DNA of 64,000 bases from an uncultured Trueperaceae bacterium (GTDB lineage: Bacteria > Deinococcota > Deinococci > Deinococcales > Trueperaceae). A program made the position numbers and the translations under genes. The stretch lies in contig CAWCXJ010000001.1 of assembly GCA_963799485.1 (NCBI GenBank), positions 1-64,000 of the forward strand, given 5' to 3'. The notes beneath the pieces were generated by a model. That model saw only the letters and a list, made by a program, of their open reading frames with translations. It had not been told where the DNA came from and did not search any database. Below are positions 22,532-24,184 of this stretch, in pieces; position 1 is the first letter of the stretch; the number at the start of each line of letters is the position of its first letter.

Positions 22532-22619
22532 ATGGAAAGCGTGATGATAGACGGCTCGGTGGTGCGGGCTCATGCGTGTTCGGCGGGTGCGCCGCATAAA
22601 AAAGCAACTGTGTCATTTG

Positions 22620-23564
22620 TCAAGTAGCAGCTGGACGCCAGGAGCTTCCGGAGCGGATCATCGCGTTCAAGATACATAGGAGCTTTCTGGCACAGGCAAC
22701 CAACGCTACCTTTTTGGGCTTGCCCTTGAGCAGCAAGCGCTCATAGAGTGGGCGGATCAGGGGGTTGTAACGTGAGGCCGACAGCGCTGCCAGGTAAAGG
22801 GCGGTGCGCACGTCACGCCGACCGCCCCACACACTCCTTCGGCCCCGCCAGAGACCGCTATCGCGATTCAAAGGTGCGACGCCCACCAACGCAGCGATCT
22901 GCTTTCTCGTGAGGCTACCCAGTTCCGGCAAGTTCGCCAGCAACACCAGGGATACCTGCGGACCCACGCCTGGCACGCTCTGCAGTAAATGGTCACGTGC
23001 CTTGGTCGAGGGATCAGCCTTGACAGCTTCAAGCAACGCCTCGTCCAGGTGCTGGCGACGCTTTTCCAGGAACTTCAGGTGCTCATCAATATCGGCTTTC
23101 ACACTGTCGTCGTTGCAGGCGTGTAGGCGGTTGCGCTCGGCGGTTATCATCTGCACCAGCTGACTACGCCGCGTCACCAGGGCGTCCAAGGCACGTGTGG
23201 CGCTATCAGGCAACTTACGTAAAGCAGGTGCGACTTTGATTGCAAACTCAGCGAGTACCACAGCATCGATCCGGTCGGTTTTCGCCAGCTTGCCCAGGGC
23301 CCGAGCAAAATCACGCACCTGTCTTGGGTTGACCACCACCACAGGTAGCGCTGCCTCAACCAGGGCGATGACCAAGGGCTGCTCCAAACCGCCGGTGGCC
23401 TCAAGAACGATGCGGCTCGGCTGTAGATGCCTCAGCAGCTTGACCAACTCGCCGATACCGTCTGGCGTGTTGGCGTGTGAAAGGCGTTCACCGCTTGGTA
23501 TGATCGCGATATCGAGACGGTACTTGGCGACGTCTACGCCAGCCACCAACACTTCGTTAAGCAT
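22620..23564 (-). CDS. IS110 DEDD recombinase/transposase (314 aa)
   Basis: GVDVAK, LEATGG, KTDRIDA (DEDD) and C-terminal PLNRDSG serine motif; GGAGGTGA RBS before ATG 23564. Confidence 0.95.
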
Positions 23565-23584
23565 GTCACCTCCGTGAGACGCTC

Positions 23585-23725
23585 CAGCGTAGCCCAACCT
23601 TGCAGATGCGAGCTTATTGCTCGGGTAACTGTTCGGGCTTAGGCTGAAGACAACAGCACGACGAGACTAGCTTTTTTACGGTCTTTAGAACCTAAGGGGC
23701 GACGCTCTGCCGTGCCGTGTCCCAT
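23585..23725 (-). ncRNA. Predicted bridge RNA (target-binding loop ~23655-23716, donor-binding loop ~23591-23639); ends approximate
   Basis: Two stem-internal loop-hairpin modules whose loop strands match the target site and the donor junction (see findings). Confidence 0.85.
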
Positions 23726-24184
23726 CCTCAACATACAAGGGGTCAAAAGGCGCAAGACCTCGGCTACAGCAGAGGTGGATTTAGCACCAAGATATATGTC
23801 ACCGTGGACGCTTTAGGCAACCCTTTACGCCTGCTCTTAACAGCCGGACAAGCCCACGAAGCGCCTTATGCAGCAGCGTTACTCGAAGGTTATGAAGCTG
23901 AGTTCGTGATGGGCGACAAAGCCTATAACGCTCAAGCTGTCCTCACAGCCATTGCTGAGATGAGTGCCGAAGCGGTCATTCCACCCAAAATCAACCGTAA
24001 GGAGACGCGCAACTATGACCATGAACTTTACCAAGAGCGTCACCTCGTTGAGTGCTTTTTTAACAAGCTCAAATACTATAGGCGCTGCTTCTCTCGTTTT
24101 GATAAGCTCGCCCGTAACTACCTTGGCTTCTTACACTTCGCTTCGGTACTCATCTGGCTGCGGTGAAATGTCAACACAACCCAG

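Follow-up and report, generated by a model that had tools for sequence, protein, structure and literature searches.

Why should one insertion sequence (IS) sit exactly at the point where the two reading frames of another IS meet? The question is raised by a stretch of 64,000 nucleotides from an uncultured Trueperaceae bacterium (assembly GCA_963799485.1, contig CAWCXJ010000001.1, positions 1 to 64,000), hereafter the window, in which an IS110-family element on the minus strand is inserted in an IS5-family element. The whole genome (G000) comprises 3.66 Mb in 15 contigs with 59% G+C, and the window lies on contig C1. IS110 elements home in on repeats, among them repetitive extragenic palindromic (REP) sequences, attC sites and transposon ends. 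We consider it fairly probable that the guided IS110 element of the window accumulates in the A-run/G-run windows of other IS genes, here called frameshift windows, and that it is either adapted to them or maintained on them.

An IS110 element within the A-run/G-run of an IS5 element

The nested arrangement consists of the following features, of which the ends of the host IS5 were set by comparison with related copies.

22190-22604, plus strand: left part of the host IS5-family element, with left inverted repeat, orfA and A6G
~22190-22204: left inverted repeat of the host IS5
22232 (ATG), plus strand: IS5 orfA; Pfam DUF4096, E 1.1e-21
22598-22603 (A-run) and 22604 (G), plus strand: IS5 A-run/G-run, left of the insertion
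22603-22604 and 23738-23739: copies of the CT core (AG on the plus strand)
22605-23739, minus strand: IS110-family element, 1135 bp with the CT core counted once; identical junctions in four copies
22618-22623, minus strand: TTGACA at the right end of the IS110 element, read from the sequence
22620-23564, minus strand: recombinase/transposase gene; ATG at 23564 preceded by GGAGGTG
23730-23735, minus strand: TATGTT at the left end of the IS110 element, read from the sequence
23740-24182, plus strand: right part of the host IS5-family element, with GGG, orfB and right inverted repeat
23740-23742, plus strand: IS5 GGG, right of the insertion
24164-24166 (stop), plus strand: IS5 orfB; Pfam DDE_Tnp_1, E 4e-11
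~24182: end of the right inverted repeat of the host IS5

On the NCBIfam IS5_3 profile, orfA corresponds to positions 4-108 of 258 and orfB to positions 115-258 of 258. As read from the sequence, orfA runs in the phase CAT AAA AAA G and orfB goes on as A AGG GGT CAA, that is, in the -1 frame, and this phasing places the insertion exactly within the A-run/G-run that links the two frames. In plus orientation, all four full copies of the IS110 element in the genome are bounded by ...AAAAAAG/CAACTGTG...CATACAAG/GGG... (a slash marks the junction); since AG, or CT on the element strand, is found at both junctions, the element proper is 22605-23739. There is no target duplication beyond this core, and no terminal inverted repeats were seen when the ends were read by eye, without a repeat tool. 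In the public run X1, one unitig spans exactly 22598-23742, as expected for a repeat whose flanks differ between copies.

The empty site was rebuilt as CAT-AAAAAAG-GGGTCAA. It is confirmed by unoccupied homologous windows in IS5 relatives from the same bacterial family, which read CAT-A6G4-TCAA (L178, L197; cataaaaAAGGGGTCAA), TCT-A6G4 (L177) or A6G5, and which also show that both run and split are conserved in this IS5 group. Related IS5 copies in the same genome have CGT-A5G6 or CGT-A4G7 at this position, and across both sets the runs are A4-6G4-7. The original prediction, made from the letters of the window, had placed the insertion in an IS5 slippery sequence with orfA parted from orfB; profile positions, frames and junctions all agree with it.

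The longest open reading frame (ORF) of the IS110 recombinase begins at a TTG at 23597. Its product matches PF01548 (E 4.9e-26; N-terminal DEDD, RuvC-like domain) and PF02371 (E 7.3e-18; C-terminal Transposase_20 domain) in Pfam, and reaches 223.6 bits (cut-off 140) with NCBIfam NF033542, 'IS110 family RNA-guided transposase'. Every feature that could be checked in the sequence assigns the element to the IS110 group. On the circularised element, TTGACA and TATGTT would be spaced by 17 nt and would form a putative junction promoter of the circular form; the circular form of IS621 carries a junction promoter, according to the excerpted text of Durrant 2024 (PMC11208160). Among the contigs of four public runs, none joins across the IS110 element or shows a circle joint. 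Run X5 contains copies that are 95-97% identical, and an additional flank is present in X2; none of the public runs listed as containing the sequence is of RNA.

Other insertions and repeats are found in and around these IS5 copies. A stretch of ~40 nt within orfA of the window (22492-22535; GTACCCGCACTAGCGGGGGCCTCGTGGCCC...) is missing from related IS5 copies. It also occurs at C7:119280-119324, and several unrelated public-run contigs contain it at high depth (up to 72x in run X5); we take it for a probable footprint or small mobile repeat. An identical IS5 copy on contig C10 has an IS3-family element at the point of this stretch. To the right of the IS5, positions 24169-24533 of the window are 98% identical to DNA beside another IS5 copy (C1:275106-275279) and hold a 120-aa minus-strand ORF without a family match, and the window IS5 may itself lie inside another repeated element. 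In a related IS5 on contig C15 (L004, ~380-1700), the A4G7 run is followed after 4 nt by an IS256-family element (NCBIfam, 411 bits) flanked by an 8-bp duplication, GGGGCAAA, so that the same region of the IS5 frameshift window is interrupted by another IS, unrelated to the first.

Guides of the bridge RNA and the sites that they match

The non-coding left end of the IS110 element has the two-loop architecture of a bridge RNA, with these parts.

23585-23737, minus strand: non-coding left end, bridge RNA, by a consensus fold of 30 sequences
~23657-23714, minus strand: target-binding loop
23703-23695, minus strand: left target guide GTCGCCCCT, on the 5' strand of the first internal loop
23678-23671, minus strand: right target guide TAAAAAAG, on the 3' strand of the first internal loop
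~23590-23640, minus strand: donor-binding loop
~23624-23634, minus strand: left donor guide
~23599-23608, minus strand: right donor guide

The fold, derived from the left end of the window element and those of 29 relatives, has 28 pairs, 14 of them with compensatory (double) changes. Its outer stem is of 13 pairs, with many compensatory changes, its inner hairpin is GGTC/GACC, and its second loop holds GAACAGTT(G/A)C and CAAGG. The only Rfam match in 22000-24400, to sX15, was discarded, being sub-threshold (26.4 bits against a gathering value of 55, E 0.1) and on the strand opposite to the bridge RNA.

In IS621, the left target guide reads like the top strand and the right one like its reverse complement, with the CT core part of both (excerpted text of Durrant 2024, PMC11208160). 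In the window element, GTCGCCCCT gives the left target plus CT core in top-strand sense, and TAAAAAAG is the reverse complement of CT+TTTTTA; by the IS621 rule the encoded target is therefore GTCGCCC-CT-TTTTTA, the other strand of which is TAAAAAAGGGGCGAC (A6G4). The rule was examined in 79 fetched loci with recombinases 50-60% identical to that of the window, of which 61 were parsed for end and guide by the left-end start c/TTGTAT, the loop frame and the right end aagACAGTTGCT/, and 18 were left out. The left guide agreed with the left flank at a mean of 4.92 of 8 positions (shuffled 3.58, maximum 4.03), and the reverse complement of the right guide agreed with the right flank at 4.30 of 6 (shuffled 1.66, maximum 2.15); not one of 1000 shuffles reached the observed agreement for either guide. 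Some mis-parsed guides, such as those of L071-L077, were kept in this count, so the true agreement lies above the stated means. The four full copies in the genome all agree with the guides at CCC-CT-TTTTT. We conclude that this bridge-RNA IS110 recognises CCC-CT-TTTTT, with the outer guide positions contributing more weakly, and regard the anatomy and the guide reading as secure. The encoded target is the one that had been predicted.

A BLAST search of the region against the whole genome found the following copies. Their sites are given in element orientation, as 7 nt left and 6 nt right of the core, for comparison with the guide (left GTCGCCC, right TTTTTA).

C1:22598-23742: full copy, the window; site (a), left TTGACCC, right TTTTTA, a 10/13 guide match; IS5 orfA/orfB junction
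C7:319198-320342: full copy, 99.9% identical; site (b), left GTAGCCC, right TTTTTA, a 14/15 guide match; IS701-family fragment
C12:16649-16680: left-end remnant of 32 bp; site (c), left GTGACCC, right side lost; IS630-like orfA
C6:508140-509284: full copy, 100% identical; site (d), left CGTCCCC, right TTTTTG; inside an IS5-family orfB remnant
C7:561830-562974: full copy, 100% identical; site (e), left GAGCCCC, right TTTTTG; terminator-like hairpin
C6:714982-715140: solo left end of a relative with 76% identity

The element has probably been active recently. Its full copies all stand at CCC-CT-TTTTT, and the 32-bp remnant stands at CCC-CT. Junctions of the orfA/orfB type make up three of the five sites and come from three IS families, IS5, IS701 and IS630 (the last by position only). 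Family scans of short ORFs in the flanks gave no matches, and the contexts of the sites rest on pairwise comparison and alignment.

The best occupied match to the guide is site (b). Its left flank aligns (E 8e-12) to residues 364-392 of an intact 406-aa IS701-family ORF of another genome (NCBIfam IS701, 444 bits). The 0 frame of the site reads cTA AAA AAG GGG, a canonical A_AAA_AAG heptamer, and a conserved C-terminal tail (..LSIQEVRRLL..WS.RRRRRQ..) lies in the -1 frame. This bears out the original suggestion that the preferred host is a related IS. The same split is found in six diverged IS701 elements from five genomes, each with an A4-6G4-7 run, a stop ~10 codons on and the tail in -1, and an alignment of seven tails has 11 invariant columns, indicating that the -1 frame is kept as protein. 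More distant IS701 relatives (G121, G125) have a single ORF of 482 aa and no run. From the sequence, the IS701 run looks like an unreported conserved recoding site, here called putative. The subfamily, with the tail DLIPLTVPEVRRLL..WSxWRRxHQ in -1, is found at these loci.

L008 1640-2014 (contig C13 of the genome, 458.1-458.5 kb)
L001 4107-4199 and 5340-5522
L116, L104, L105 and L106

A BLASTP comparison of the IS701 tail at C7:319198 with the tail frames of G066 was not significant. On contig C7 (L001, 5590-5680), a tRNA-like gene, recognised by eye, lies ~250 nt from IS701 fragments and the IS110 copy, with two IS701 tails in inverted orientation near it; the region looks like an IS graveyard beside a tRNA.

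The C12 remnant of site (c) lies ~17 codons past position 39 of 60 of the HTH_33 profile in an IS630-like orfA. This is where the IS630 orfA on a metagenome contig described below (L142) stops (..DFKK/), and where the genome's own IS630 (C6:459 kb) requires a -1 shift on TTC AAA AAA ACG (A7). The latter, at C6:458.5-459.6 kb, appears to be an intact two-ORF IS630-family element, with orfA ending in ..QEDFKKTFLLSG and a stop and orfB open in -1.

Sites (d) and (e) are of other kinds. The flank of site (d) aligns to residues 93-141 of the window orfB (E 6e-11), and 151 bp of it recur elsewhere at 98% identity. At site (e) the insertion falls in the loop of a hairpin whose stem is 9 bp of G+C, with ATTTTTCC following on the other strand; a lumazine-synthase-like ORF, recognised by eye, lies upstream. 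The solo left end of the 76% relative, which comprises the bridge-RNA region only and has the same right guide with the left guide GAAGACCCCA, lies at C6:714982-715140 in a site homologous to that at C7:561830, with a promoter-like GCGTGCTAGAC upstream of both.

Site (e) fits the main alternative offered with the original prediction, namely that the element is primarily aimed at intrinsic terminators, with their GC stem and U-tract, through the loop or T-tract, and that IS windows are look-alikes. Beside that hairpin and the homologous site of the relative, the free site at C7:36742 follows a weak hairpin, seen by eye. However, only one of the five sites in the genome is terminator-like, whereas four are IS-derived, and the best occupied guide match is the IS701 window, not the hairpin (4/7 + 5/6); nor is any site terminator-like in the genome G164 or on L142, two further cases given below. 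We therefore consider it improbable that terminators are the primary target; they are a minor component. A distribution in which terminators or unrelated A/T runs held most of the copies would have spoken against the original prediction, and it is not the one found.

Targeting or survival: evidence from other lineages and from unused sites

At the DNA level, the element has few relatives: 5 of 41 related genomes gave any match, the best (G023) with 65% identity and a different, palindromic target site. The flanks of the 61 parsed relatives were surveyed by Pfam on 214 flank ORFs. The IS5 window was found in one of them, L081, from a metagenome-assembled genome of Dehalococcoidia (G164). This element lies between a DUF4096 orfA (positions 1-108 of IS5_3) and a DDE orfB (112-258), where its place in the profile agrees with that in the window, and its guides, AATCCCCCCT and TCGAAAAG, fit its own IS5 window, ACC GAA AAG/GGG GGC C, where they match TTTCG beyond the homopolymer runs. 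Eight full copies are present in G164: three in IS5 windows at that place in the profile (108-112), one at the ribosome-binding site of an IS3-like orfA, two abutting one IS-like end and two elsewhere. No unoccupied copies of the IS5 window were found in G164 at up to 3 mismatches.

Copies within IS elements might also multiply as passengers, after one original hit, when the host IS is mobilised in trans. Two copies in G164 (L158, L162) have host flanks 96-99.8% alike, near the 99.3% identity of their IS110 elements, and could be one copied composite. The host IS5 of the third, L160, is only 86% like the other two, whereas the IS110 copies are 99.3-99.5% alike, which indicates at least two independent hits. 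In the genome of the window, each copy is in a different host family and locus, and there hitch-hiking is already contradicted; as a general explanation we consider it very improbable.

A scan of metagenomes with the guide frame of the window element gave 26 hits, of which 24 were rejected as coincidences within GroEL-like and epimerase-like coding sequence (by eye), leaving two real IS110 elements, L142 and L147. L142, of another clade, shares the right target guide of the window element. On one side it adjoins an IS630 orfA that ends in ..QADFKK/ (positions 4-133 of 299 of the IS630 profile), on the other an IS701 tail; whether two copies have recombined or the contig is chimeric, this points to two window-type sites. 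In a quick maximum-likelihood tree, the window element groups with those of G023 and Deinococcus pimensis (support of 93 in the Shimodaira-Hasegawa-like approximate likelihood ratio test, SH-aLRT), and the window element, L081, L142 and L147 fall in separate clades; guides to A-run/G-run sequences thus arose more than once. The habit that had been predicted from the window is repeated in two unrelated IS110 lineages, that of G164 and that of the L142 contig.

We propose the following course of events. As in the family, the element would be excised as a circle, and transcription of the left-end RNA would start from the junction promoter TTGACA-17 nt-TATGTT. This RNA would pair, through its target-binding loop, with both strands of 5'-(GTCG)CCC-CT-TTTTT(A)-3', which is A6G4 on the other strand, and the boundary between A-run and G-run would provide the obligatory CT core. 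The recombinase would insert the element at this boundary, always antisense to the gene that reads AAAAAAGGGG. Sites of the CCCCTTTTTT type at which insertion is without cost belong mostly to transposase genes of IS5, IS701 and IS630, where they form A-run/G-run -1 windows or K-K-G linkers. The element accumulates there and parts the two reading frames, so that no fused transposase would be made and the host IS would be disabled. The guide, near-perfect for an IS701-type window, may have been shaped by, or at least maintained on, multi-copy dispensable windows; in that sense it may be adapted, or 'programmed', to them.

The sites that remain free bear on this proposal. Of ~16 occurrences of CCCCTTTTTT in the 3.66-Mb genome, 11 are further sites without the element, none of them in DNA that is repeated at the site itself, and the 33 ORFs that overlap or adjoin them include no transposase. 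Seven are within ordinary genes (a sulfotransferase, an APP1-like phosphatase, a SPOR protein, an M20 peptidase, a glycosyltransferase, an acyltransferase and an unnamed 412-aa ORF), and the other four occupy tight junctions between genes (tsaE/tsaD, fdhD/oxidoreductase, binding protein/permease and ferritin-like/tatA). Taking the four full copies as draws from 15 sites gives a chance of 12/1365 = 0.009 that they include all three IS-borne sites, a figure of our own arithmetic that does not separate targeting from selection.

A different explanation requires no adaptation. The specificity could be incidental, the guide matching a rare low-complexity word, A6G4, with insertions in genes and operon junctions purged and those in junk DNA, such as IS remnants and terminators, persisting. 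The positions of the empty sites, all in or between ordinary genes, favour it, as purifying selection alone could give the IS bias. So does the fact that guide match does not predict occupancy: a perfect 15/15 site (C8:75367, the M20 peptidase) and an 11/13 match (C7:506058) are empty and outmatch three of the occupied sites, which fits selection filtering insertions rather than IS targeting. The run at site (d) encodes an internal K-K-G-G of the IS5 orfB, away from any recoding window, and one of five sites in the genome, together with the sole site of the 76% relative, is terminator-like. L147, which has the same guide, is intergenic and outside any IS, and 60 of the 61 relatives have other targets, so that the habit is not clade-wide; IS-related flanks of any kind were found in 12 of the 61.

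Further points count against a dedicated use of frameshift windows. The phase of the A6G in the window IS5 is AAA AAA G instead of the canonical X XXY YYZ and is compatible only with slippage in the P site or during transcription. The element is absent from seven related IS5 copies whose windows are A5G6 or A4G7, indicating that it is the sequence that matters, not the recoding function; recognition is of sequence. The A5G5 of the window IS630 and the A7G of IS1595, which has no G-run, are likewise unoccupied. L142 and L147 were picked by a pattern that contains the guide and are not an unbiased sample, and the L142 contig may be chimeric.

Against incidental specificity with a survival filter are the fit of the guide to the IS701 window (14/15), which extends beyond the homopolymers, the match of the G164 guide to TTTCG past the runs, with all three such windows there filled, and the arrival of three separate clades at the same target class. 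We judge the filter acting alone to be rather unlikely. Adaptation of the guide to frameshift windows seems to us the better supported reading, and one in which we place reasonable though limited trust, given the IS701 fit, the G164 fit beyond homopolymers, the saturation of windows in two genomes and the convergence of three clades. Of the programmed hyperparasitism of a recoding signal that was originally proposed, the splitting of IS windows holds; the emphasis on the signal does not, as sequence and not function is recognised, orfB is hit off the window, a perfect site is empty and one relative in 61 shares the habit. Two similar motifs cited in its support were recovered in part: AAAAAGGGGG of the IS630 at ~1303-1312 is present on the minus strand, where in that copy it is an in-frame K-K-G, and the A7G of IS1595 is present as T7 at 35950-35956, lacking a G-run.

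Known systems and further types of target

We tentatively suggest, at slightly less than an even chance, a more general reading: that the -1 windows of IS5, IS630 and IS701 are a dedicated target class, gained repeatedly and independently by bridge-RNA IS110 hyperparasites, for which the A/G boundary supplies the CT core and the silenced hosts serve as safe harbours that are multi-copy and travel horizontally. With a guide matched to such windows in other ISs, IS110 would gain a new natural target class. A search of main texts on IS110 with frameshift, slippery or nested sites, on interruption of IS5, IS630 or IS701, and on IS701 recoding found no report of this class, and Siddiquee 2024 does not use the word 'frameshift' in its main text. 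If true, it would be a clear case of RNA-guided parasitism and silencing among transposons, with a bearing on the regulation of IS load in IS-rich genomes, and would show bridge RNAs drifting to conserved, dispensable, horizontally mobile sequences. The material also offers natural guide/target pairs for mismatch rules outside IS621: perfect, 14/15 and 10/15 pairs, and non-targets that differ only in the lengths of the A and G runs.

Bridge-RNA recombinases of IS621 and the IS110 group were reportedly also described by Hiraizumi et al. in 2024. The window element resembles IS621, as described in the excerpted text of Durrant 2024 (PMC11208160), in its recombinase with DEDD and Transposase_20 domains, its left-end bridge RNA, in which the target loop precedes the donor loop, its CT core and its guide senses, as well as in a natural target that differs from the guide by mismatch and in the use of multi-copy targets. 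In contrast, IS621 targets REP elements (same text), whereas the window element targets the A-run/G-run of other IS transposase genes. The two recombinases are only distantly related, and the clade of the window element is known here from sequence alone.

IS4321 and IS5075, which insert in the ends of Tn21, are likewise DEDD-family ISs, and they disable another transposable element by homing in on a sequence conserved in it. However, they belong to the IS1111 group, have subterminal inverted repeats and a guide RNA downstream of tnp, and hit transposon ends rather than a coding or recoding window. The window element has a long non-coding region with the guides upstream of tnp and, on reading by eye, no subterminal repeats, which places it outside the IS1111 group despite the similar behaviour. 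The IS1111-attC group (Post & Hall 2009; Tetu & Holmes 2008; via the excerpted text of PMC11187229) is also site-specific and exploits a functional site that another mobile system has in many copies, in that case the attC recombination site of integron cassettes in its folded form. ISPpu9, ISPpu10 and other REP-targeting IS110 elements (excerpted texts of PMC12288879 and bioRxiv 10.64898/2026.03.19.712850) are similarly confined to one conserved, repeated, dispensable sequence, and differ in that their targets are intergenic REP sequences.

Among the relatives of the window element, further target types include a REP-like repeat, the tip of IS3-family inverted repeats and unique sites. The habit of ISPpu9 and ISPpu10 is shared by six or seven Chloroflexota loci from different clades (L042, L047, L055, L064, L091, L094, and L093), which lie at the repeat CCGTTCGTC-CT-GAGCCTGTCGAA with matching guides; this repeat is a REP-like multi-copy target. 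In Candidatus Lucifugimonas marina (L085, L088), two copies of one IS110 relative abut, respectively, the start of an IS3-family orfA and the end of an IS3-family orfB at TGAC-CT-GCCCCC; it looks as if the element approaches IS3-family inverted repeats from both ends, with their tip as its target. Pfam gave no match on the flank of a further relative, L096, at 1e-5. As read by eye, a copy in G164 (L164) and this element lie at A/G-rich ribosome-binding sites upstream of IS3-like orfA starts, with the junctions GAAAAG/GGGGGCAATATG and TTTAAAAG/GGGACTGCAATG.

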